Shown: positions 16,420 through 62,205, counted from the stretch's first letter. The stretch: DNA of 64,000 bases from Corythoichthys intestinalis (GCF_030265065.1 NC_080408.1:22919480-22983479); one strand, 5' to 3'. The notes: generated by a model not told the origin, from the letters alone. Program-made: numbers and translations.

Positions 16420-16790
16420 TGATACTGTAGCAACTTAACTGTTCTGCCCAAATGCATGAGGGTAAGTTGGGCAGCCATGACTGTCAGTTGTGGCTGCAAA
16501 TGGTATACAGTATGTTCTTCGTTGTGTTCAATTAAGCGTGTTAAGAAAAAGATCATATTCCACTCTTCCCAAATGCATGATGGGAAGATGTGCAACCATG
16601 ACTGTCAGTAGTGGCTGTGAATGGTATACAGTATGATCTGCGTTGTGTTCAATTAAGCTGTTAAGAAACAGATCGTCTCCTGCTCTGCCCAAATGCATGA
16701 TGGGAAGACGTGTAACCATGACTGTCAGTAGTGGCTGCAAATGCCATACAATATATTCTGCATTGCAATTTAAATTTACTCCAGCGTCTA
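16420..16790. repeat. Minisatellite, ~120-bp unit x3, derived from internal sequence of hAT MITE family 2
   Basis: Three tandem units containing ...cccaaatgcatgatgggaag..g.aaccatgactgtcagtagtggctg.aaatg.tatacagtat... Unit resembles 12060-12170 inside the MITE at 11685-12676. Confidence 0.7.
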
Positions 16791-35370: not shown

Positions 35371-36913
35371 TGTCAAATACGAATACAGCGATTACAAAGT
35401 AGACACTACAAACTTCCTTTAAATGAAGGACTACTTACGTTTGATCATTGATAGTCATGTAAAAAGCTCTCCTAATGCTCATTAGCAGCAGCATGTTAGC
35501 TGGACAACAACTCCAGCCACCCTCCTCCGGGGAACGAACTGTAAATTGCTCTCCGCCGGGCGGTTTGCCGATCCGCGAAGACAATCGACAACCGGGTCGT
35601 CATGTCAAATAATCCAGGATAGTTATGTGTGATTTTCTGCTTCGAAGACTTTGAAACATCACTCGGTTCGGGTTAGCATGTCGGCTAGCTGTTACGCCTT
35701 CTGGTTTGTTTACATTCTCCGAAGCCGGGGAAGGAAAATGACATATGTCCGATTTAGGTGTCATAAAATATCGTTCAGGAGGTGCGACAGTAAAGGTGAA
35801 GTCGACAGTTTTGACCATTATGGAGTAATTTTGCCATGTCGTCCTGAATAAATGCATTTTTATTATTTCATATTCCATTCATATTCCATGTTATTTGTCA
35901 TGACCATGCCATTTATTTAGCAATTGGGGAAAATACTTGGATAAAAAGAATATCCTGTAAAAATATTGAAGTAAAGAGACAGAAACAATGACATTTTGCC
36001 GCTCTCTTCGTCGCGTTTTCCTCGTTGTGAATAGTTCCCCCTCGACGGGCTAACTGGTCCTTCTCAAGCCATTTATATAGCTATTGGGGAAAAATACTTG
36101 GATAAAAAGAATATCCTGTAAAAATATTGGAGTAGAGAGACTGAAACAATGACATTTTCCGGCTCTCTTCCTCGCGTTTTCCTCGTTCTGAATAATTCCC
36201 CCTCAATGGGCTGAATAGTAAAACCGATGAACCCAGTCTACCGCTGACGTCATCCACCTGTTGGGGACGCTAAAGCCCTATAATGGTTGGCGTGGCTAAC
36301 CGGCAGATTAAAAGACTAATTTCTCGTCATCTGTGCTTTGCTAAATTGTTGTATATAGTCGAATCGTCTCAAAATATGATTCTAATTCACATAATAATGC
36401 CATTTAAGACTTTTTTTCTCGTGTCGTATGCTCTTTAAGCACTTTAAATGTACACCTGTTTGTTTCTGGTGCGCACCAGATGGTTTAAATTTATTTTATT
36501 TCTGTACAATATTTATTTGGGTGCAAAGTTTTTTGTGACATATTTAGTTTAAAATATTTTGTTTTAAATTTATATTTAGAACAAATATTTTCTTTTTATT
36601 ATTTATTCTTTTTACTCGTAAACATTTTAAAATGAACTCTTAGTTTTAACTTGTTTTTCAACATTTTTATTCATAATTTGTAAATATCTTTTAATTAAAT
36701 GAACTTCAAGATGTTTTGTAAAATATTCAGATTTTTGTTACCTTTTCCGTTTCAAATTATAAGGAAAAAAAATCAAGATTTTTTTTTTTTTGCAACAATT
36801 TAAAAATATTACATGTAGACATATTTTTTCAGTATTTTAATGTTTTAACTGCACTGAAAATTTGATTTTTTTTTTTTAAATACTGTTTTTAAAAAAAAAT
36901 CTTTTCCCTCAAG

Positions 36914-38866: not shown

Positions 38867-40249
38867 TACAGTGCCCTCCCGTAATTATTGGATTTATAAT
38901 AATTATGAGTTTTTTAGCTTCTAATAATTTTTTTTTCTAAATAATATGGGATCTTAATGGAAAAAAGAGAAAAATCCAACCTTCAATACAAGTGCATTTA
39001 TTCAGTGGGGAAAAAAATCCCACATAAAGAAATAATTATTTGACATCAAATAATGTGTATCACAATTATTAGCACCCCTGGTGTTAATACTTTGTACAAC
39101 CCCCTTGTCCCAACAAAACAGCACCTAATCTTCTCCTATATTGTCTTGCTGAAAGACCCAGTGACGACCCATCTTCATCTTTCGGGCAGAGGGCAACAGA
39201 TTTTGATTTAAAATGTCCTGGTATTTCAAAGCATTCATGATGCCATGCACCCTAACAAGGTTCCCAGGGCCTTTGGAAGTGAAACAGCCCCACAGCATCA
39301 CTGACCCACCCCCATACTTCACAGTGGGTATGAGGTGCTTTTCAGCATGCGCATCTTTCGTGGCACGCCAGACCCACTTAGAGTGTTTGTTGCCAAAAAG
39401 CTCAATCTTGGTCTCATCTGACCAAAGCACACGGTCCCAGTTGAAGCCCCAATACCGCTTGGCGATTTCCAGACGTTCGCGTTTATGATTGTGAGTGAGG
39501 AAAGGTTTTCTCCGTGCATGCCTCCCAAACAGCTTGTTGGCGTGTAGACAGCACCTCATACCCACTGGGAAGTATGGGGGTGGGTCAGTGATGCTGTGGG
39601 GCTGTTTCGCTTCCAAAGGCCCTTGTTAGGGTGCATGGCATCATGAATGCTTTGAAATACCAGGACATTTTAAATCAAAATCTGTTGCCCTCTGCCCGAA
39701 AGCTGAAGATGGGTCGTCACTGGGTCTTTCAGCAAGACAATGACCCTAAACATATGGCCAAATCTACACAGAAATGGTTCACCAGACACAAAATCAAGCT
39801 CCTCCCATGGCCATCTCAGTTCCCAAACCTCAACCCCATTGAAAACCTGTGGGGTGAGGGAAGAGGAGAGTACAGAGAGAGGACCCAGGTCTCTGGATGA
39901 TTTAGAGATATTCTGCAAAGAGGAATGGCTGAAGATCCCTCTTTCTGTCTTTTCCCATCTTGTGAAACATTATAGGAGAAGATTAGGTGCTGTTTTGTTG
40001 GCAAAAGGGGGTAGTACAAAGTATTAACACCAGGGGTGCTAATAATTGTGACACACATTATTTGATGTCAAATAATTATTTCTTTATGTGGGATTTTTTT
40101 CCCTACTGAATAAATGCACTTGTATTGAAGGTTGGATTTTTCTCTTTTTCTCCATTAAGGTCCCATATTATTTAGAACAAGAAAAAAAAATAGTAGAAGC
40201 TAAAAAACACATAATTATTATAAATCCAATAATTATGGAGGGCACTGTA
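38867..40249 (+). mobile_element. Tc1-like DNA transposon (TIR TACAGTGCCCTCC…ATAATTATTGG), internally palindromic and non-functional
   Basis: ~190-bp TIRs at both ends ending cactgta. Interior holds two head-to-head transposase C-terminal fragments, - strand 39125-39616 and + strand 39631-39900 ([49 protein letters not shown]...). 39061-39337 is the reverse complement of 39553-39830. No intact ORF. Confidence 0.75.
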
Positions 40250-43860: not shown

Positions 43861-44269
43861 AGCTTTCTTTCTTTTCGTTCATATATCTTTCGAAACTCTA
43901 GTTTGAAAAAAGACTTTTTGAACACCAAATTAATTTTTATACCGAAAATAATTACAGTACATCCGAAACAAAAGATTATAACAATATATTTGAGAGAAAA
44001 GTATGTTATTTTGCCTCATTCAAATCATAATATCTGAACATTTAAATATGTAAACTTAAGTGCAATCACATTCGTAAATGAATGGCTTCTGGTTTTTGAA
44101 ATGTAAATAAACCAATCTATTGTGATAAAACAACAAAATTGCTATAACTGCATTAACCATCAAAGTGAAGTCTAACTGTAACTGTAGTCTTGAAACAAAT
44201 CTGAATAAGGAAAAACATTGCAATAAAATAATGCAAACTGGTTAAACTTGAGAGTAGCTGAGATCTGTC

Positions 44270-44400
44270 ATGACAGAACATCGCTTCAGTGATATCTGGC
44301 AACATCTAGCGGAGTGAATGGGAGAGTAGCTGAGATCTGTCATGACAGAACATCACTTCAATGATATCTGGCGCCATCTAGCGTCGTGAATGGGTATAAT
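44270..44400. repeat. Tandem duplication, ~58-bp unit x2 (gagagtagctgagatctgtcatgacagaacatc.cttcaatgatatctggc..catctagcg..gtgaatgg)
   Basis: Two near-identical adjacent units seen directly. Confidence 0.7.
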
Positions 44401-46250: not shown

Positions 46251-46333
46251 AGTCATCGAGAATCTGTTGAATGCATTGCATGCATATCTAATGAAGTGTC
46301 CAGCAAACATCTGTAATATTTGCATCTGCAGGG

Positions 46334-48297
46334 CAATGGAGGAGGCAGCCGACCGTGTTTACATGGCTGCACGACTGTTTGTGCACCTCTTCAACCAGCG
46401 GGGGGCGTCCTTGCAACAGTGTATCCTGGAGCTGCTGGCCATCGCCGATGCCGCTGACCAGTTCCACAAGAAGACTGTATCAGCGGCCGTGGGTGGTGGC
46501 GTGGCGAGCGTGGCCGGCAGCCTGACCACCATCACGGGGCTCATCCTGGCACCGTTCACCTTCGGCGCCTCCATCATTGTCACAGCGGTGGGCATCGGCG
46601 TGGCCACAGCGGGAAGCATCACCTCGGCCACCGCCAACATCACTGACACTGTCCATTCTAACATGGACCGCAAGAAAGTGGAGAAGATGATCCAAGACTA
46701 TCAGGAGAGGATCAAAGATATCCGGGACTGCATGGATTTTGTGCAGGAGGGTATAGATACCCTACAGGAATGGGACTTTGAGAAATACTCGCAGAGTGCC
46801 GCGAAGAAGGCCCTGAATCACAACATCAAGCACGTGGTAAAGGAAGGCGGCCGGGCAGGGAAAGCCCTCATGATAAACACTGACAAGCTCATCAGCACCG
46901 TCCAAGTTCTGGGTGCGGGAGCTGGAGCAGCCAAAGCCGCCCAGGCCATAAGTGTCACCACAGGTGTCATGTCGGCGCTCTTCCTTGCTCTCGATGTCTT
47001 CTTCCTCGCCAAAGACTCCCACGAGTTGCGCAAAGGTGCCAAGACCAAGTTCGCCTCCAAGATAAGGGACGTGTGCAAAGATCTGCAGGATGGTCTTCTG
47101 GAGCTCAACAAGGTCAAGACCCAACTACAGAAAACCATGGACGGCATTGAAGTGGAAGAGTATGAGGAGATCGAGGAAGTGGAGGTGGAAGTGGATGACG
47201 ACCTGGAGTCTGATCCCAAGAAGCTGGCTGAGCTAGAGCAAGAGCTGGACCTCATGGAAGAGAAATTAGACAAGAGGATTGAGGATGGCAAAAATGCAGA
47301 AAAGGAAAGCGAATCCAAGGAGAAGAAGGAAGGGACAAGGAAGAAAGACAAACTGGACAAGGAAACAGAGAACCAGATCACAGCCTGGAAGGGAAAAAAG
47401 GAAAAAGAGGAAACATCTTCACTTAAAAAAGAGAAGGAGAAACCCAAAGAGAAGGACAATGTTGGGAAGGATCCAAATGAAAGAACAGTAGAATCCAGAA
47501 AGAAGTCAGAATATGAGAAAACTACCGAAGACAGATTGAAAGAAGCACCTACCAAAACACAAGACTCCCTTAGGATGCCAGAACATGACCGACGCGACAG
47601 AGAAAGTGAAGGGACGGAACTACGTAGAGATACAGGGGATTCTAAAAGGAAGCCAGGACATGAGAGAAGCCACCAAGAAGAAAGAATGACGACTGGGAAT
47701 CCTGATGGAAGAGCTAATATTGGTGAGCGGGCCAATCATGAGAGAGGAAGCAATAGATACGCCAAAAATAAAAGCAGCCTGACAGACAAGATTCGAGCAA
47801 AAGACTCGAGGACAGAAACGGGAAGTAGAGAAGAACAAGATTGGGAGAGGTCAATGATGAGGGACTCTCACGAAAGAAGTGACGACTGGAGGGGTTCGCA
47901 TCGGAGTCACAAATCGAGCCGAAGGAACTATTCAGATGATAAGATAGCCAGCCAGAAGAGTTACCACAGGAGGTCGACGGGAGAGGTGGAAGCAGAAGTG
48001 CGTGGCGAGGACAAACGAGTGAGCCGAATCGAGAGCGCCCGAAAGAAGTTTGAAAGAGATTTTGAGGACGTGGAGGAGCATCGAGGGAGCACGGAGCATC
48101 ATAGGAGAGATAGTGACAGAGTCAAGACAGGAGGCGATCGGGAGAGGAGAGGAAGTGATCGGGAAAGGCGAGAAAGTCACAGAGACACGACAATAAGTGA
48201 TCGGGAGAGGAGAGAAAGTGACAGAGAGCGGAAACATAGTCGTGGAAGTTCTCGCCATCATTCCAGCATCCTCATGGATGACGGACTCTACATTTAG
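46334..48297 (+). CDS. Apolipoprotein L (APOL)-like protein with long charged C-terminal extension, main or terminal coding exon (stop 48295-48297)
   Basis: ORF 46267-48297. Acceptor tgcatctgcag|G (46332/46333), phase-2 entry identical to gene 1. Strong-Kozak ATG at 46336 (gcaATGG). N-terminal ~270 aa align with gene 1 and the APOL core (…LAIADAADQFHKKTVSAAVGGGVASVAGSLTTITGLILAPFTFGASIIVTAVGIGVATAGS…LALDVFFLAKDSHELRKGAKTKFASKIRDV…LQDGLLELN). Followed by ~370 aa E/K/R/D/S-rich low complexity with RD/RE/RS repeats (…DRERRGSDRERRESHRDTTISDRERRESDRERKHSRGSS…). Confidence 0.8.
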
Positions 48298-50710: not shown

Positions 50711-52254
50711 TGTTATATTTATTTGTGTGTATCATTCATCTTCCAAGCTGCTTATGCATCCTGACACGTGACTACACACAAAATGACTACACGTAACAAA
50801 GAATAAAAAATGGGCAAACTACATCATTAATGTATTTTTTAAGTAAATGAAATTGCAGACAGGTAATACAAACCCAGTTTAATTCATATATTCATTGTTT
50901 AAAACCTGTACATATACTGTACTTGCAGTGATAGAAAACTGAAGCTAGCACAAGTTCGGTCAAGACTAACGATATCAAAACTATTTAGCTGTACAAAATA
51001 TTGAAATTCTTTTGTAAATGTATGAGCTCACCAAAAATCAGTGCATGCACATCCAGGGTTTTCCCATAAGCGGAGTTTAAGGGGTGGGGGGGGCAAGGGG
51101 GCCAGGCCCCCTGGTGGCCGAAAAATGTCATTGCATGTAATTGACTTTCCTATACTGTGTATGATTTTAAAATTTAGAATTTTCTGGTAAAATGTTGTCT
51201 ATAAAACTTGTAAAACAGTAAAACAAACAACAAAAATGAATGAAATGAAGAAAAAAAAGCACCTTAGACGGTGATTTGCTTTGCTTAGCCAAAACCACCT
51301 GAGGACCAAAGAGGCAAGATGGATATACGGAATTTTTTAAAACCTAAACTTTCAAAAGCGACAACAACTACTGAGCAAGAACCAAGGATTGAAAATGTGG
51401 ACCATCAAACGCTAGGGACCACCATCGAAATGGTGAGCGGACTTTCAATTTGCCCCACTAAAGACGCTAATTTTACAACAGAGCCACCACCAGTGACTTG
51501 CCAATGTAGTTACCCCCGTCAAAAATTCTGTCCCCTGTCCGCCGGAGCGCACACACATATTAGTTATGAGTTATGTCGACTTAAAAAAGTCATTTGAAGC
51601 CAGAAAAGAACCACAGTTATAAATTTTGGACATCAACGTTTATTAAACTGGAGAAACTCCATACAGGACTTGAATTACAGTAATAACAGTTATAGGTCAC
51701 TCTACGAGTAAAAGAGTGAAACTTTGCCTTTTTTTACGTTCAGTACGTATGTTACGTTATACGACAGATGGATGGGCCATGTTTTAAAACCTCGTAGATA
51801 ACTACATCATCAAAACATGGAAATCAAGCAAATCAGTGCTGCACAGCGGGTCCGCCCAGGGCATACAATATTTGACGAGGGTAACTACATTGGCACGACA
51901 CTGGCGGGCGTACCATATTCAATGGATGATGATCTTGGCGAAAAGTATAGCTGTCCTAGGCAGCCTGATTTAAAATTCCCCTCAAGAATGATGGTAAACA
52001 TAATCAATAATAAAATAATCTTATTATTATAAATATTCTTGTTAGTTAATTTTATTGTTGACACTGCGTTTTGGGGTCATCAACATGTTGTGCCCCTCCT
52101 GTCTCAAAAGTCAAACTCCGCCTATGGGTATTCCATAGAAATACACTGCACAGAATGATTCCAATATAGATGCTCGAAGGTGTAAGTTTAAGATATATTT
52201 AACATGTACTGGAAAAGTACATATCCTGTTTGAATTATGATTGGGATTTCATGT

Positions 52255-52260
52255 TTTATT
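52255..52260 (-). promoter_or_regulatory. AATAAA polyadenylation signal (minus strand) ~190 nt downstream of the Glu-rich repeat ORF stop
   Basis: + strand tttatt at 52255-52260 is AATAAA on the - strand. Confidence 0.4.
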
Positions 52261-52451: not shown

Positions 52452-54810
52452 TCATTGGAATTCAACCCCCTTGTCCCGTTGCCGTTCCCGCTCGCTTTCA
52501 CGCTCCTTTTCTCGCCTCAAAGTAGCTATAGCGACAGCCTCGTCGAAGCACATGCTGAGCGGGCTGTTTCGGGGCGAGTCCTTGCCGCAGGTGGCACCGA
52601 CATCATCTGGCGTGTCGGCATCCCTCCTCTCTCGCTGTTGTTGCTGTTGTCGAAGACTCCGGGCAACCAATTTACAGTGTTGGGGCTTGGGTGGGACAAT
52701 TGGTACCGCTTTCACTTGGTAAACGTTGGGCAATTTTGAGATAACCAGCTTCCTTCCTACTCCTCGATCCTCAAACCTCATACCTTCTCTGTACTCCAGA
52801 ATATCAGATCTGACATCTTTCTGGGGTGTATCTCGAAGACTTGGTGTCACTATCACTTCTTCACAATTGGGTTTGTTCTCGATGGGTACCAACTTTTCGC
52901 TTAGGGTACATTCTTCTTTGGGTAACTTTAGTCCTTGCTCTTCAAACTTTACATTTTCTTGGGACTCCGCAACATATTTAAGGGGTGTGTCTCCACGACT
53001 TGGTGTCACTGTCACTTCCTCACAAATGAGTTTGTTTTCTTCACGTACCAACTTTTCCTCAACAGTAAATTCTGGTTCACACCACTTTGGTTCTTGCTCC
53101 TCAGTCCTTGCAGCTTCTTCAAACTTGGGAAAATCCTCTTTCAGGGGTTCATCGCCAATACTTAGTGACACTGTCAGTTCCCCACAAATGGGTTTGTCAT
53201 TTTCAGTCTCCAAATTCTCCTGAAGAGTAACTTCCGGGTCACACCTCTCTGATCCTTGCTCCTCAACCTTCACAGCAAATCCGGACCGCGCAACATCAGA
53301 ACTGACAACTTTCAGGGTTGCATCTCTAAAACTCGGTGTAACTGTCACTTCCTCACAAATGGGCTTTTCTTCTTCACGCACAAACGTTTTCTTAATAATA
53401 AAATCTGATTCACACTTCTCTGGTCCTTGCTCCTCAATGCTCATGGCTTCTCCAATCTCTGGAACTTCCGCCCTGACCTCTTTCAGGGGTATATCTCTAA
53501 GACTTGGCGTCACTATCACTTCCTCACAAATTGGTTTGTCTTCTTCAGGCACCAAATTTTCCTTGACAGGAACATCTTGTTCACATCTGTCTGGAACTTG
53601 TTCATCAAGCTTCCTGTCTTCTCCGGACAGTGGGATGTCAGACCTGATCTCTCTCAGTGGTATATCTCTAAGGCTTGACTTTGCTGTCACTTCTTCACCA
53701 ACAGGTTTTTCATCTTCAGTCAACAAATTCTCCTGAACAGTAGCTTCTGGTTCGCACTTCTCTGGTCCTTGCTCCTCAAACGTCACAGCTTCTCCAGCCC
53801 CCGAAACAATAGGCCTGAGAAGTTTCAGGGGTGTATCTATAAGACTTGGTGTCACTGTCAGTTCCTCACTAATAGGTTTCACTTCTATAGACACAAATCT
53901 TTCCTTAACAGTAACATCTAGTTCACACCTTTCTAGTTCTTGCTCCTCAACCCTCATGGCTTCTCCAGAATCTTGAATGTCAGACCTGACCTCTTTCAGG
54001 GATCTATCTCGAAGAGTTGGTGTCACGGACATTTCCTTGCGAAAGGGTTTGTCTTCTTCAGGCACAAGCTTTTCCCGAACAGTACCTTCTTGTTCACATC
54101 TCTCTGGACCTTTCTCGTCAAGACTCACACCTTCTCTAGACTCTGATTCGTCAGACCTGACCTTTTTCAGAGGTGTATCTTCAAGACTTGGGGTCACTTC
54201 CACTTCCACACAAGTTGGTGCTTCGGGCACCAACATTTTTACAACCTCAGCTACTTGGTCAAATCTCTCTGTAGAGTTCATCTCCTTCACCTCAGTCTTC
54301 TGTCCTGGAATTGTCTCTATCTTGTTGGTCTCTTCGCTGTATTCACCCTCCACTGTCTTTCTTTCTTCTTCCTCAATCAGTTCACAAACGACCTCCTCAA
54401 GCTCCTTCCAGACTATCATGAAGTCTTCCTCCTGCGTCTTTCCTGATCTCAGTTCCTTGTTCTCTTCTTTTGAGAGATTTTTAGGCAAATTTCCTATAGT
54501 TTCAGGATTCATATCCTCTGTGTTTTTGCCATCTTCTCCCTCATCCGTGTCCTGTTTAACAGATGCTGTCACCTCTTCAGAAACATCTAGGAGCTCCTCT
54601 GCTTCGGATGTTTCTTTCTGAGCACAACCAGAAACAGAGTAGTGAAGGACCTCTTCTTCCTGTCTTACGTTACTAACTGCTACATCATCAGTGGTGTCAA
54701 CACTTGATTCATCTGTGTGCTCTTGCATTGCTAAGTCTAGACATTGGTTTGATGGCATTTCTAAGGAGAAAGGTTCAGGCCCAGCTTCCTTCATTATGAG
54801 ATCTTCATTC
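52452..54810 (-). CDS. Glu-rich protein with nine tandem ~57-aa repeats (consensus VTPSLRDTPLKEVRSDI..SGEAM.VEEQGPEKCEPE.TV.ENLVPEEDKPICEEV); large coding exon, stop at 52452-52454
   Basis: 780-codon ORF on the - strand. Upstream acceptor (- strand ttttctgtgcag|G at 54811/54810), so ATG 54794 may be the start (with spliced 5' UTR) or internal. Repeat period 171 nt. Two conserved Cys per repeat (RCE… and KPICEEV). The + strand ORFs over the same region (52726-53223, 53359-53736, 53977-54621) are shadow frames. Confidence 0.65.
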
Positions 54811-56036
54811 CTGCACAGAAAAGAAACAATTACAGTTTGTATTCAGGTTCTACAGGTTCTATAACAAGTGGTTTGTAGAAATTTAGCCATCCATTTTAGA
54901 AAACATGGGCAGCTCAGTGTCTGTTTTCGATTTCTTATATTTCCCATTTCTGCACAGAATTTTGGAATGCTGGAGACATGCGTACCAACAAATGAGTTTT
55001 GTTCCCTCATCTGTGGTCAGTACAAGCCAAGGCTAGATTCTCATGAGCGATTATTGTTTGGTGTGGGTAGTTTATTGTTCTCCCTGATCTTCTCAGAAAA
55101 CAGACAGGTCCAACAATATTGAATGTGTTCATTTATAGTCGCTCAATTAGGAAGTTCACTGAAGCTAGCTATTCCTGGACACAAACAAAGGAGTAACTAG
55201 TTGTGTAGAGTGTTTGTGCCACATGTCTAACAAATCATTCACCAAAATAAAATTTTGAGAAGAATTTGCAATCACAATTTAGTTACTACACAAATTAAGT
55301 GTTAGCCTTCCATTTCTTATTCTGCTACATACTCAATCTTCTACTTTGTGATTTCTGGCAGTGTTTAAGCCCTACGGCACCATGCTGCCTTTCACAGGTA
55401 AGTTACGGTACTATGATACCATTACATGGTACTATTCGACATCAATTTAGGTGTAGTGTGCTTGCTGTTAGTCATTTCAAGTACACTTCGTGTGAGAGGA
55501 GATTGCAAAGTGATTTTTTTGGGGGGTCACGTGAGGTCGTACATTTAAAAAATCTTAAGATATTAAGCCACTGTGCCAAACACACTTAACTAATATGCAG
55601 AAAATGTCAACAACCTGGTGCGGATGTTGAGTACCGTATTTTTCGGACTACAAGTCGCACCTGAGTATAAGTCGCACAAGCCATAAAATGCCCAACGAAG
55701 AGGAAAAAAAAAACATGTACAAGTCGCACCTGAGTATAAGTCGCATTTTTGGGGGAAATTTGCTTGATAAAATCCAACACATAGAACAGACATGTCATCT
55801 TGAAAGGCACTTTAATATAAAAATACAATAGAGAACAACATTCGGAATAAGTGCACAGTGTACAGTGCATGAACAACGAAATGCGAATATACTGTCTCAC
55901 CAGGACGCTACGGCTCGGTCCTGGCTATTCAGCGGGCTAAACTCCCAAATGACGATGCTGAACGTCCATATAATTTGCTGAATCAATTTCGTCCTCGATA
56001 CCAAACAGGTTCGCATCGACGTAAATAAATGATAAT

Positions 56037-57519
56037 TAGTAGTGGTGTCAACAATAATCGATGCGGCGATGCATCCCGATGCGGGGCATGGACGATTCGA
56101 GTCGATGCGGGCAACAAGCCGAATCGATTCAGCGCATTTTAAAATATATAAGTACGTTCAAAAATCTTCCCTGCGCAATTCCGGTGATGCAACGGATTTG
56201 GTTTACCCATTTGTATTATTATTGTCATGTTTCATTTTTTACACACGCATAACTCTGGTCAAGTTTCCCACCAACCTCTTAGAAGCCAAAATGTCTCCAG
56301 ATGTCTACTTTCAATGTCTTAGGTGCATCAATAATCTTTCTCACTCCCTCTTTCTCCGCTTTAGCCATTGTTATGTTATGTCCTATCTCGTAGAGGTTAG
56401 ATGGTCGGGCCCAAAATGTTAAGCATTCACGTTCGGGACAGGTCGGGCCGCCGCGCCGACTAATAAATTATAAAAAAAATAAATAAAAAAAAGGGATAAA
56501 ACCGAGAGCAGGCTCTCTGTATTGTGCAATTGCTTGTGCAAGCACATGAATGCCATGGCGCCGCTCGCTTTTCTTCTTCTCCTCCCACTGTGGCGCTTGC
56601 GATTCGTTACGAAAGACACTTTTATTCATGCACACAAAGGCAAGACAAATGTGATCCTTTTGAATCTTCTCCTCTGTGTGTTTTTTTTTTATATTAAACT
56701 TTCCTGCCGTTATTTCGTTGTGTAAATGCTTTTATAATGCTCATAAAAATATGTAGACTATTTAAACATTAAGAAAACTTGAGAATTCGTTACGAAGGAC
56801 ACCTTTATTTATGCAGACAAAGGCAACAGAAATGTTATCCTTTTGAATCTTCTCCTGTTTTTTAAAAAAAATTTATATTAAACTTTGGCTGGATTTTTTA
56901 GGCCCGATCTAACCTCTATTGCACATATATAGTGGGCTGGGCCTACATTTTACTTTTGTTCTACATTGCAATTTAGTTGATGTTTTGTTTGCAACTGAAC
57001 TGATCCCTGGATTGATATTGCGATAAAGATGCTGCTGCACTTCAATATTTTCTTTGTCGTTTTCTTTAATATTTACTTGAATATTTTTATTGATGGGTCG
57101 TTGTGACTAAAATACAGTGACTGTTATTACTGATTTTGCACAGGAGTTCAGATGTTGTCCTGTGTGAAAGGCTGCTACTGTGTGTAAGAAAAAGAAAAAG
57201 GCCCTGGTCTCATTCAAAGCACTAATTAAATGCTGTGATGTTTTATATATATATATATATAATATATATATATGAAAGCATTTTCATTTGACTTCAACCA
57301 GGAGTGACACAAGAGCCAATAAAAAGTTGTTTAATGTTTGACCGCTTGTGTTCTCTAATGTTTCACGAAAAATATGCTTTGCTTTCGAATTTTAATGCAT
57401 CCCAGGCTTTAATGCATCGCGATGCATTGCCGAATCGAACCGAATCGTGACCCTCTGAATCGAATCGAATCGAATTGTGGCCCTCATAATCGTAATCGAA
57501 TCGAATCGTGAGGGCAGTG
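56037..57519 (+). mobile_element. Nested hAT-like element (TIR TAGTGGTGTCAACA / …GTTGATGCACACCTCTA) with internal (cgaatcgaat)n and a ~100-bp x2 duplication
   Basis: 8-bp TSD ATAATTAG on both sides (56029-56036 and 57520-57527). The site is single-copy in the intact host element at ~34990. Confidence 0.55.
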
Positions 57520-58070
57520 TTGATGCACACCTCTAATAATTAGGTGCTTTTACAGCAATGACATGACACAAACGGTTAGCATGCGTTCGCTAGCATTAGC
57601 GCATCGTTCAAACAACCACACAACTGGCTCTAAATGTCCGATCGCGGGTGGAAAACACACAACAACAACAGAAAAGATGACACACACAGGCGTTGCCTCG
57701 GTAGAGATATTTTATAAGCATAAACAATGAACGTAGGTTCGCAGCCGTGTTTCTCTCTCGCTAACTCGCCCACTCACTCAGAGCTACGTAGCTGTCGGTC
57801 TTCTTCTGGCGTGTGAGCGCTCTTCTTCACGTAAACAAGTGCAAGTGCGCCCCCATGTGGGCATGAAAGCGCCACAAACTAAAAGCATGCATTTCAATAT
57901 AAAAAAGTCAATAATACAATTGAACACTCATTGCCAAAGGCAGAACGCGAACGTGGCCATAGCTACTAAGTTATTCAGATAACTATAGCATAAAGAACAT
58001 GCTAACAAGTTTACCAAACCATCAGTGTCACTCCAAAACAACAAAATAACATGTGAAATGATATCATGAT

Positions 58071-58678
58071 TAGGGCTGTCAAAATTATCGCATTAACGGG
58101 CGGTAATTCATTTTTTTAATTAATCACTTTAAAATATTTGACGCAATTAACGCACATGCCCCGCTCAAACATATTAAAATGACAGCACAATGTCATGCCC
58201 ACTTGTTACCTGTGTTTTTTACCTCCCTCTGCTGGCGCTTTGGTGCGACTGAATTTATGGGTTTAAGCACCATGAACATTGTGTAATTATTGACATCAAC
58301 AATGGCGAGTTATTAGTTTATTTTTTGATTGAAAATTTTACAAATTTTATTAAAACGAAAATGTTAAGAGGGTTTTTGATATAAAACTTCTATAACTTTT
58401 ACTAACATTTATCTTTTAAGAACTACAAGTATCAATGGATCGCTTTAACAGAATGTTAATATTAATGCCATCTTGTTGATTTATTGTTATAATAAACAAA
58501 TACAGTACTTATGTACAGTATGTTGAATCTATATAGCCGTCTTGCGTCTTATCTTTCCATTCCAATAATAGTCTACAGAAAAATATGGCATATTTTATCG
58601 ATGGTTTGAATTGCGATTAATTACGATTAATTAATTTTTAAGCTGTGATTAACTTGATTAAAAATTTTAATCGTTTGA
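58071..58678 (-). mobile_element. hAT-type MITE family 1 copy nested in the TA-target MITE
   Basis: tagggctgtcaaaattatcg...cgtttgacagcccta. 8-bp TSD ATCATGAT / ATCATAAT (one mismatch). Confidence 0.7.
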
Positions 58679-58938
58679 CAGCCCTAATCATAATGTGTTA
58701 ATAATTTCACACATAAGTCGCTCCTGAGTATAAGTCGCACCCCCAGCCAAAGTATGAAAAAAACTGCGACTTATAATCCGAAAAATACGGTAATGTGCTA
58801 ATGTGTTTCTAGTTCTGGAAATATTGTCCGCCCTCTGCTGGGTGCTCTTTCAGAGAGCTAAGTTATTGTTTTTTTCTTTCTTAATCATTATTTCCTTCAT
58901 GTCATTTAAGGCATTTTATATTTTCAAGCAAGTGCTTT

Positions 58939-59538
58939 TCACCTTAGACTCTTGTCCTCTTGGTCCTTAAGTCTTTCTTCGTTTTGTGGTATTGTGTTTT
59001 CGCCTACGTCTGCGTCATCCTGGCTCTTATCGCTATTATTTTGTTGTTTGGCCGTACAGCATTCAGGGTTAAATTCCATTTCTTCAGATGACTCGTCCAC
59101 GGAAACGTTTTCAGCAGTACTAGCTGGAACATTGTCCGGCTCAAGATCACTTGGGCTGCTTAGAAAGAAGTCCGCAGGAAGGCTTGTAGCAAGCAAGCTG
59201 CTTTCTTCATCACTGCTATAGTAGTGGACAGCATCGTCATCTTCCGTGTTATCTCCGTCATCAGTGCAACACTCCCCTGGTTCACAAACAGGTGAGGTCA
59301 TGTAAGGCAAGCTTAGGGATTTTCCATGCCGTTCATTCGCATCAACACTGGGCGGCCGGTGGGACTTGAGCTTGTTTTGATCGTTTGTGCTGGGGCTGGT
59401 GCTCAGGCTCGTGTTGGGCCCCTCGGTGTAAGGCAATGGTTGCTCCATGAGTTCGTACTCGTCGTCGGAATAACCGGGAGGTTCAACAGAGAACTCGTTC
59501 ATTTGAGAAGAAGAATCCGGCAAGAAGTGGACAGGGAT
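58939..59538 (-). CDS. Terminal coding exon of an unidentified - strand gene: acidic/Ser-rich C-terminal region with PPGY motif, stop at 58939-58941
   Basis: - strand acceptor tttgtctttttag|ATCCCTG (59540/59538). Frame IPVHFLPDSSSQMNEFSVEPPGYSDDEYELMEQPLPYTEGPNTS…SDEESSLLATSLPADFF…EERLKDQEDKSLR*. Upstream exons would lie beyond the palindromic Tc1-like element or outside the window. Confidence 0.45.
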   Translation of the reverse strand: MPVHFLPDSSSQMNEFSVEPPGYSDDEYELMEQPLPYTEGPNTSLSTSPSTNDQNKLKSHRPPSVDANERHGKSLSLPYMTSPVCEPGECCTDDGDNTEDDDAVHYYSSDEESSLLATSLPADFFLSSPSDLEPDNVPASTAENVSVDESSEEMEFNPECCTAKQQNNSDKSQDDADVGENTIPQNEERLKDQEDKSLR

Positions 59539-59584: not shown

Positions 59585-62205
59585 TACAGTTCCTGACAAA
59601 ATATTCATTTTGTAGAAACAATTGCTAATAACCTGACTTTTAATTATTCAATTGGTTTCAGAAATGGCTCATATGAAAGCTAAGACCCTCCCAAATGATG
59701 TTGAATGTACAAAAATATATTTGTTTCACTGAAAAAAGATTTATCATTTAATGAAGACATAAAGGTCAAATTTTGGCAAGACAAAAGTTTTGTCGCCTAC
59801 AGAAAGTAGTGTGAAAATTGAATAAAAAATGTACTTCAAATTGGGGTTGTTCCGATCATGTTTTTTTGCTCCCGATCCGATCCCGATCGTTTTAGTTTGA
59901 GTATCTGCCGATCCTGATATTTCCCGATCCGATTGCTTTTTTTTGCTCCCGATTCAATTCCAATCATTCCCGATACTTTTTCCCGATCATATACATTTTG
60001 GCAATGCATTTAAAAAAAAAAAAGAATACAACTCGGACGAATATATACATTCAACATACAGTACATAAGTACTGTATTTGTTTATTATGACAATAAATCC
60101 TCAAGATGGCATTTACATTATTAACATTCTTTCTGTGAGAGGGATCCACGGATAGAAAGACTTGTAATTCTTAAAGGATAAATGTGACTTTGTATATAGT
60201 GACTAGCTATTGCCATCTAGTGTATTTGTTGAGCTTTCAGTAAATGAAGTGCAACCATGACTGTGCGTAGGGGCACCAATTGATATATCTTCTCTGCTTT
60301 GGGAAATAACACATGGTGTTAAGAAAAAGATCAACTACTACCTTACTTCCCCACATTGCTTTCCATGATATTTCTAATTGTGGAGAGAGGGATTTTAAAG
60401 CTTTAGCCAATTATAAAAAGGCTCCAAAGACTGCCTAAATTCACTCTACTCATTTTACGTTATCTTTTAGCTCGATATGCAAGTAAAACGGCACCATTAT
60501 AGATTGAACACGACAATGCGTGAGTGGGTCGTGCAGCGCATGCGTTAATGCCGTTAAATAATTTTACGTGATTAATTCAAAAAAGATTAATTACCGCCGT
60601 TAACGCGATAAATTTGATAGCCTTACTCTGAGCTAAAACTAAAGACTCTGGATGAGTGTAATACATTTTGTCTGTAACGTTAAATACAAATAGAAAACAA
60701 TTTCATTAAAAAATATAAATATATTAAAAGGCATGTCCGATATTTTTTTGCCGATTCCGATTCTTTGAAAATGACGTGATCGGACCCGATCGATCGGCAT
60801 CCTGATCGATCAGGACATCTTTACTTCAAATACAAAAATATGTTACATAACATAAGCGAATTAAGTAGTGGTGCTGTGAGATCCAAATGTAATATTTTGT
60901 ATGCTTCCATGGGCTTGAAGGACTGCATCCATGCGGTTCGGCAAGGATTCATACAATTTATTGATGAAGTCATCAGGAACATCAAAAAGAGCAGTCTTGC
61001 ATGCCTCCAATAGTTCATCAACATTCTTGGCTTTCGTCTTCCATGCTTCCTCTTTCATCCTACTCCACACATGCTCCATGATGTTCATGTCTGGTGACTG
61101 GGCTGGCCAGTCCTGGAGGTACATGATTGAAGTATGCGATGGAGCACCATCCTGCTGCAGAATTTGTCCCTTTTTATGGTTAGGAATGTGAGAAGCAGCT
61201 AATAACACCATTTACCATTAACACCATTTGTTGATATTTCAGACTATTTATGTTGCCTTCCTACCTGCAGATCTCTCGCACACCCCCATACTGGATGTAA
61301 CCTCAGACCATGATTTTGCCACCACCAAACTTCACTGTTTTCTGAGTGAATCTCGGATCCATGCGGGCTCCAGTAGGTCCCCTGCAATATTTGCGGGGAC
61401 TGTGGTGTAATTCAATGGAAGATTCATCTGAAAAATCCCCCTTTTGCCGCAAAAACAGTGAAGTTTGGTGGTGGCAAAATCATGGTCTGAGGTTACATCA
61501 ACTATGAGTGTGTGCGAGAGATCGGCAGGGTGGAAGGCAACATAAATAGTCTGAAATATCAACAAATATTAGCTGCCTCTTACATTCCTAACCATAAAAA
61601 GGGACAAATTCTGCAGCAGGGTGGTGCTCCATCGCATACTTCAATCAAGATCCTCCAGGACTGGCCAGCCCATTCACCAGACATGAACATCATTGAGCAT
61701 GTCTGGGGTAGGATGAAAGAGGAAGCATGGAAGACGAAAGCCAAGAATGTTGATGAACTCTGGGAGGCATGCAAGACTGCTTTCTTTGATGTTCCTGATG
61801 ACTTCATCCATAAATTGTAAGAATCCTTGCCGAACCGCATGGATGCAGTCCTTCAAGCCAATGGAAGTCATACAAAATATTACATTTGGATCTCACAGCA
61901 CCACTACTTAATTCGCTTATGGTATACATATTTTTGTATTTGAAGTATATTTTTTGTTCAACTCTCACACTACTTTCTGTAGGCGACAAAACTTCTGTCT
62001 TGCCAAAATTTGACCTTTATGTCTTCATTAAATGATAAATCTTTTTTCAGTGAAACAAATATATTTTTGTACATTCAACATTATTTGGGAAGCTCTTAGC
62101 TTTCATATAAGCCATTTCTGAAACCAATTGAATAATTAAAAGTCAGGTTATTAGCAATTGTTTCTACAAAACGGATAAGCGACAAGACTTTTGTCAGGGA
62201 CTGTA
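59585..62205. mobile_element. Tc1-like palindromic element (~2.6 kb) with nested hAT MITE. Two inverted 3' halves of a Tc1 transposase gene joined head-to-head.
   Basis: Ends TACAGTTCCTGACAAAA… / …TTTTGTCAGGGACTGTA with TA flanks. 59590-59830 is the reverse complement of 61930-62170. Transposase C-terminal fragments on - (60861-61211) and + (61512-61820: …IPNHKKGQILQQGGAPSHTSIKILQDWPAHSPDMNIIEHVWGRMKEEAWKTKAKNVDEL…). Symmetry centre ~61400. Confidence 0.7.
59842..60823 (+). mobile_element. hAT-type MITE family 2, second copy, inserted in the left arm of the palindromic Tc1-like element
   Basis: tggggttgttccgatc...gatcaggacatcttta with 8-bp TSD CTTCAAAT (59834-59841 and 60824-60831). ~90% identical to 11685-12676. 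Confidence 0.75.

Follow-up and report, generated by a model that had tools for sequence, protein, structure and literature searches.

The 64,000-nucleotide stretch of Corythoichthys intestinalis DNA analyzed here (GCF_030265065.1, NC_080408.1:22919480-22983479; "the window", in whose numbering all coordinates are given) contains, on its minus strand, the 3'-terminal coding exon of arhgap30, a gene that is already annotated. The coding part of this exon spans 52452..54810 (2.36 kb), stop codon included, and carries an open reading frame (ORF) of 780 codons at 52452..54794. A first-pass annotation, made by a model from the sequence alone, had singled out the interval 52452-54810 on account of a 780-codon minus-strand ORF with 171-nt periodicity. 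ORF calling and Tandem Repeats Finder bear out both features, and the interval matches the coding part of the terminal exon exactly, with an AG acceptor just before 54810. What does not hold is the accompanying verdict that the protein was unannotatable and its family unrecognizable. By BLASTP, 780/780 residues are identical to the C-terminal 780 residues (734-1513) of the RefSeq protein 'rho GTPase-activating protein 30 isoform X2 [Corythoichthys intestinalis]' (P0010), and the exon as a whole encodes residues 729-1513 of this isoform. The case illustrates how a large acidic repeat ORF with the look of an orphan can be the terminal exon of a known signaling gene.

A polypyrimidine tract and an AG acceptor (ttctgtgcag/G at 54811/54810) lie ahead of the exon, and from 54810 onward the frame is open. 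The penultimate coding exon (IPVHFLPDSSSQMNEF…DQEDKSL-R) was located by tblastn at 58942..59538 on the minus strand; it has canonical splice sites (AG acceptor, GT donor) and shares 98% identity with residues 525-728 of isoform X2, whose sequence reads …KSLR/NEDLIMKEAG… across the junction. Taken with the contiguous protein model, the two exon boundaries would delimit a last intron of about 4.1 kb (54811..58941, minus strand). Downstream of the stop codon, the AATAAA noted in the first pass is indeed present, and there are two such hexamers on the minus strand, at 52255..52260 (192 nt after the stop) and at 52051-52056 (396 nt after it), both candidate polyadenylation signals. Residues 1 to about 529 of the protein, the RhoGAP domain included, find no match within the 64-kb window; hence, the exons encoding this domain must lie outside of it.

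The full-length protein leaves little doubt about the nature of the gene. The RhoGAP domain (Pfam PF00620) is recognized in the ortholog P0001 with an E value of 4e-44 and is part of the precomputed annotation of RefSeq isoform X2 as well. The catalytic motifs of RhoGAP proteins are the arginine finger and a conserved asparagine. In isoform X2, the former (G-x-x-R-x-S-G) can be read as GIYRLSG within …VDGIYRLSGVSSNIQKL…, and the conserved-Asn segment of the fold as …NLAIVWAPNLL…. The N-terminus of this isoform begins MRRVWRKGASKDKVFGCDLLEHL / MRRVWRKGASKDKVFGCDLLEHLN and runs directly into the RhoGAP domain; inspection by eye, as opposed to a formal signal-peptide predictor, reveals no hydrophobic N-terminal signal stretch in the full-length model, where the first-pass annotation had suggested looking for a signal peptide in upstream exons. 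A RhoGAP without signal peptide is expected to be cytoplasmic, and the proposal of a secreted egg-envelope, otolith or mucin-like protein must be abandoned. The other suggestion made at the time, an "E-rich cytoskeletal linker", came loosely near the mark, since ARHGAP30 co-immunoprecipitates with RhoU, remodels actin and thus regulates actin dynamics (PMC6959303); the actual gene, however, is that of a RhoGAP.

Searches differed in yield according to the query. Sequence searches of Pfam and PDB with the window ORF produced no match, as expected of a disordered tail. Homology search with the whole ORF returned two pipefish proteins, both named arhgap30 and both with related repeats, the identical protein having been crowded out by acidic low-complexity sequences, and the 104-aa C-terminal tail retrieved a single fragment of 141 aa. 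When a full-length ortholog was used as query, 120 teleost orthologs were recovered, the identical RefSeq protein among them. Most are named ARHGAP30 in NCBI and UniProt, a few '31' or '31-like' and many si:dkeyp-68b7.12. Pipelines also assigned odd labels ('kinX', 'titin-like', 'nestin-like', 'midasin', 'ATRX'), which probably owe their existence to tandem repeats in the tail; such repeats would thus be apt to mislead automatic naming.

Anatomy of the repeat-bearing tail

Tandem Repeats Finder detects the 171-nt period between 52977 and 54213 (7.3 copies, 69% matches, score 925), and an overlapping row carries the array on to 52823. Cutting the protein at its VTPS anchors yields eight full units of 57, 57, 57, 57, 57, 57, 54 and 53 aa (six of 171 nt, then 162 and 159 nt), followed by a ninth of about 28 aa that runs into the conserved tail. 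The nine 57-aa repeats initially described are therefore correct as to period, whereas two of the eight full units are shorter and the ninth is a partial copy. As defined by Tandem Repeats Finder, alignment and matches to a hidden Markov model (HMM), the array occupies 52767..54197 on the minus strand. Immediately upstream, at 54198..54281 (minus strand), lies a degenerate half-unit (…STERFDQVAEVVKMLVPEAPTCVEVE) that matches unit positions about 30-57; the HMM finds its equivalent in orthologs, for example at residue 980 of the Syngnathoides protein (LPERCGQDGEVIETLVSKEDEPILEEVT). The units are divergent, with identities of about 72% at the nucleotide level and 48% at the amino acid level.

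The first-pass description of a highly acidic, disordered chain proved apt. Glutamate makes up 18.3% of the ORF residues, and the net charge is -86 for the ORF and -56 for the array, each full unit contributing between -4 and -10. By the charge-hydropathy measure, every segment of the ORF falls on the disordered side. An AlphaFold2 run on the ORF with a 24-sequence alignment gave a mean predicted local distance difference test score (pLDDT) of 43. The only confident elements are three helices, at ORF residues 120-151 (pLDDT 77-90), 705-726 and 748-778 (the latter two with values up to 90). Throughout array residues 200-676 the model contains neither helix nor strand, and pLDDT ranges from 33 to 48 per 10-residue block, with isolated residues at or above 50. 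The array is thus predicted to be intrinsically disordered.

The confident helices coincide with conserved motifs. The one upstream of the array (54342..54437, minus strand; ORF residues 120-151) contains the motif W-KELEEVVCELIEEEERK; across the 24 aligned species, E133, C137 and E144 never vary, and W129, I140 and E141 hardly do. The other two predicted helices belong to the conserved C-terminal tail, GRKLVISKLPNVYQVKAVPIVPPKPQHC…SPLSMCFDEAVAIATLRREKERE (52455..52766, minus strand; ORF residues 677-780), whose pattern is RKLVISK-P-VYQVKAVP-VPPKPQHC … S-SPLSMCFDEAVA … and which is conserved in non-syngnathid teleosts as well. Invariant residues are confined to these two places, the upstream motif (ORF residues 129-144) and the tail (residues 681-763), the latter accounting for 27 of the 30 invariant columns of the alignment; none falls in the array.

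Three ORFs on the plus strand of the exon were considered as possible genes and rejected. They measure 165 aa (52726-53223), 125 aa (53359-53736) and 214 aa (53977-54621), and all are Ser/Leu/Phe-rich mirrors of the sense codons, that is, antisense artefacts of a sequence rich in GAA and GAG codons. Over the array, the antisense frames contain 3-29 stops.

Distribution and origin of the array

A profile of the repeat unit, the search recommended in the first pass, was run against 1.84 billion representative proteins and matched one cluster only, the arhgap30 protein of Hippocampus zosterae. Homologous repeats in related fishes were found with a local HMM built from complete units only and with the tail residues (GRKLVISK) excluded, so that single matches in outgroups reflect the unit itself. 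By this count, Vanacampus and Festucalex have 12 units each and the Corythoichthys window 9; there are 8 in Phycodurus, Hippocampus comes and Stigmatopora argus, 6 in Syngnathoides, Phyllopteryx and H. zosterae, 5-6 in Stigmatopora nigra (5 aligned units, 6 HMM matches) and 3-5 in Syngnathus species. The scan covered 14 Syngnathinae ortholog models from 12 species, and every one of them has an array in the same frame and at the same position. In Nerophis, Entelurus and Dunckerocampus we found a single match; it covers profile positions 1-30, with GGVGRKLVISK following at once. In the same place, one shorter or weaker partial match is present in Doryrhamphus and in several other percomorphs (Perca, Sander, Etheostoma, Pampus and others). 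Copy number thus ranges from 1 to 12 across the Syngnathidae, and the repeat is multi-copy in Syngnathinae only, in agreement with the early suggestion that it was lineage-specific; the array could serve as a marker for this clade. Subfamilies are those of Stiller et al. 2022 (PMC8962102), who assign Nerophis, Entelurus and the flagtail pipefishes (and thus all four of the syngnathid genera with a single match, Dunckerocampus and Doryrhamphus included) to Nerophinae, a group not separated in the NCBI taxonomy. The same study dates the split between Nerophinae and Syngnathinae to about 58 Ma and makes Corythoichthys the sister of Stigmatopora.

On grounds of parsimony, this distribution points to an origin of the array in the stem lineage of Syngnathinae, where it would have grown out of a single-copy tail segment of the ancestor, with the short last unit as the descendant in place. 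Much of the array appears to be old and not homogenized, as units are partly positionally orthologous between genera. Unit 3 of the window is 67% identical to unit 3 of S. argus and 54% to its best match in its own array, consistent with the sister relation of the two genera, and the last window unit is 65-69% identical to the last units of other species. Later gains seem to have come as multi-unit blocks. Nucleotide identity at a lag of three units reaches 0.756 versus about 0.71 at other lags; in a lag-identity scan, internal periods of 171 aa are seen in C. intestinalis and H. comes, and one of 112 aa (79% identity) in Vanacampus.

The Vanacampus period reflects a higher-order repeat of two units that is shared with Festucalex, in which two unit subtypes alternate. 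In one of them (…PERCEQE…KPILEKVT), the first of the two cysteine sites of the unit is occupied by Cys and the second by Leu; in the other (…PERSKQE…PICEEVT), Ser occupies the first site and Cys the second.

Acidic tandem repeats unrelated to the 57-aa unit occur in the arhgap30 tail of other fishes: 17 aa x8 in Entelurus (P0018, residues 996-1165), 14 aa x about 11 in the pink salmon Oncorhynchus gorbuscha (P0111, 1192-1359) and 38 aa x3 in the smelt Osmerus (P0114, 982-1171). Their presence fits the idea of a repeat-tolerant tail, and together with Syngnathinae these lineages suggest that the arhgap30 tail of teleosts is a hot-spot in which coding tandem repeats, unrelated to one another, have arisen time and again.

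A probable acidic spacer or a possible motif platform

The interpretation that we favor, and consider quite probable, is that the terminal exon of arhgap30 harbors a coding minisatellite within a disordered tail, where it serves as an acidic spacer. The tail is the long, acidic C-terminal extension of a cytoplasmic RhoGAP of the CdGAP/ARHGAP31 subfamily, and the template of the unit would be the ancestral segment that other teleosts keep in single copy right before the conserved C-terminal helices. One can envision that unequal recombination or replication slippage multiplied this segment in the stem lineage of Syngnathinae, the tail-brooding subfamily, and that copy number then drifted between about 4 and 12, partly through duplication of multi-unit blocks. 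The sequence of the units would since have evolved almost neutrally, with lengths in multiples of three and the absence of stops retained to spare the C-terminal module. The most likely role of the array itself is that of a flexible spacer, negatively charged, which separates the conserved helix W-ELEEVVCELIE-EERK from the C-terminal regulatory helices.

Selection on the units was gauged by a Nei-Gojobori count among the six units of 57 aa, with bootstrap. Between units, the ratio of nonsynonymous to synonymous substitution rates (dN/dS) averages 0.78-0.80 (bootstrap 95% interval, 0.52-1.23), and differences are distributed over the three codon positions as 254:200:267. The amino acid sequence of the unit is thus under weak constraint at most, and the reading frame is strictly kept. 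Frame retention would be understandable, as the conserved C-terminal helices would be lost with any frameshift or stop. A precedent can be found in the CdGAP/ARHGAP31 protein, whose terminal exon likewise encodes a long tail. By contacting the GAP domain and by binding 14-3-3, the C-terminal region of this paralog keeps GAP activity in check, and truncations cause a gain of function associated with Adams-Oliver syndrome (PMC5837747). By analogy, autoinhibition through the C-terminal region might provide the rationale for an open frame throughout the arhgap30 array.

Several considerations weigh against this interpretation. Some unit columns are well conserved across species (E54 in 93% and S20 in 85%, as well as the VTPSL..LKEVRSD stretch), and the first half of the unit is kept as a single copy in other percomorphs, which suggests that the units may carry a functional short motif instead of being a pure spacer. 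The dN/dS estimate comes from a simple count, the six paralogous units in it are not independent of one another, and a value of 0.8 is compatible with constraint at a few positions. Since the numbers of units derive from predicted gene models and from assemblies that cross repeats, they may be off by about one unit. Pipeline names, which are not unanimous, are the basis for choosing ARHGAP30 over ARHGAP31; for the splice junction and the poly(A) site, the basis is the RefSeq model together with canonical signals. Finally, a role of the ARHGAP30 C-terminus in autoinhibition or 14-3-3 binding is conjectured from the paralog.

The first of these points leads to a different view, in which the array is a multivalent platform. 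The units would repeat an ancestral linear motif (VTPSLRD-PLKEVRSDV-ES-EG) that is bound by a partner or phosphorylated, and the change in valency would have shifted the regulation or localization of ARHGAP30 in Syngnathinae. Consistent with this idea, unit positions 1-30 are kept as a single copy beside the C-terminal helices in Nerophinae as well as in the percomorphs, many of the best conserved Syngnathinae columns lie in positions 1-20, and each Syngnathinae species sampled retains at least 3-4 copies some 58 My after the split from Nerophinae. Stronger purifying selection would then be expected on the part of the unit that derives from the ancestral motif. However, among the six units analyzed, dN/dS for positions 1-17 is 0.73 (bootstrap 0.38-1.50), indistinguishable from the 0.83 of the rest of the unit. 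In addition, the array lacks any invariant column, copy number varies three- to four-fold, units are often cut short or degenerate (in Syngnathus and S. nigra) and no partner is known. We therefore regard such a platform as unlikely. Its more ambitious version, namely that multiplication of the motif to 4-12 copies on the Syngnathinae stem created a docking or phospho-regulatory platform as a lineage-specific functional innovation, and not by neutral drift, seems to us doubtful to a still greater degree. If true, it would mean that control of ARHGAP30, a regulator of actin and adhesion, was altered in these fishes.

A more drastic departure would be to see in the units a cysteine-stabilized repeat domain, disulfide-bonded or metal-binding, of a secreted or structural protein. 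The notion stems from the first-pass remark that two cysteines are retained in nearly all units, which was taken as a sign of structural constraint. For the first cysteine the remark stands, as it is in register in 7/8 window units and displaced by 4 residues in the eighth. The second, in contrast, is found in 5/8, units 1-3 having R, S and G in its place (codons CGC, AGT and GGT), and both are in register in only 4/8. The comparison with other species is more telling. We scored 78 units from 11 other Syngnathinae orthologs, 55 of which have both columns present. Column 34 is Cys in 60% of units and otherwise S, Y, R, T, H, W or F, ranking 42nd of 57 in conservation; column 53 is Cys in 39% and otherwise L, S, Y, G or others, ranking 56th. 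Both cysteines coexist in a mere 6 of the 55 units, with the first alone in 26, the second alone in 15 and neither in 8. Moreover, most of the replacements (S, Y, R, L, G, H, W, F) have codons that differ from that of Cys by one nucleotide. Such variability, in an array predicted to be unstructured and belonging to a cytoplasmic RhoGAP, excludes, within the reach of sequence data, a conserved disulfide or metal site, and makes a cysteine-dependent domain highly improbable. The apparent conservation within C. intestinalis would result from the common descent of the copies, the cysteines having been carried over from the amplified template. Residue conservation among tandem units of a single species can thus reflect copy ancestry and not structural constraint.

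The possibility that the array is a non-coding minisatellite, open by chance and wrongly read through by the gene model, could draw on the antisense ORFs of 125-214 aa and on a dN/dS near 1, yet we give it virtually no credence in the face of 0 stops in 489 codons (versus 39 and 48 in the other two sense frames, a disparity that upholds the first-pass argument from frame conservation), unit lengths that are all divisible by 3, a frame continuing into a tail strongly conserved across teleosts, and the recurrence of the array in every Syngnathinae model.

Comparison with related systems and neighboring features

The spacer interpretation can be set against three known systems. Within teleosts, ARHGAP30 (si:dkeyp-68b7.12 in zebrafish) shares with the window gene the N-terminal RhoGAP domain, the long disordered tail encoded mostly by a large terminal exon and the conserved C-terminal segment. 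It differs in that the 57-aa array is limited to Syngnathinae orthologs, other teleosts having one half-unit. CdGAP/ARHGAP31 is a paralogous RhoGAP with the same layout; it is not known to contain a repeat equivalent to the 57-aa unit. Lastly, lineage-specific coding minisatellites in disordered regions resemble the array in the multiple-of-three unit, the variation in copy number between relatives, the duplication of blocks, the low-complexity acidic sequence and the almost neutral evolution. Unlike a recent homogenized array, the syngnathine units are old and divergent, and some of them are positionally orthologous. No paper mentioning arhgap30 in syngnathids was found in the searchable literature. 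While the gene is known and annotated, the evolution of its repeat in this family appears undescribed, albeit of an ordinary kind.

Other features of the window include genes of the apolipoprotein L family, which are neighbors of arhgap30 here and could not be related to the human 1q23 neighborhood. The apolipoprotein L domain (PF05461) is encoded by two plus-strand ORFs, at 740-1708 (E value 6e-36) and at 46267-48297 (676 aa, E value 1e-32). The latter ends in a K/E/R/S-rich tail of about 390 aa that comprises a 63-nt tandem repeat at 48103-48221 (RERRESDRE-like), and this tail accounts for the high GC content of the 46-48 kb region and for its strong AT skew. Remnants of Tc1/mariner-type transposases (HTH_Tnp_Tc3_2, DDE_3) were identified at 39125-39616 (minus strand), 60861-61211 (minus strand) and 61512-61820 (plus strand); the last two form an inverted near-duplicate pair within the arhgap30 intron upstream of the penultimate exon. 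Three more tandem repeats, at 16439-16765, 35908-36212 and 44250-44394, have periods of 120, 161 and 72 nt, respectively, with 84-91% matches, and are apparently non-coding.

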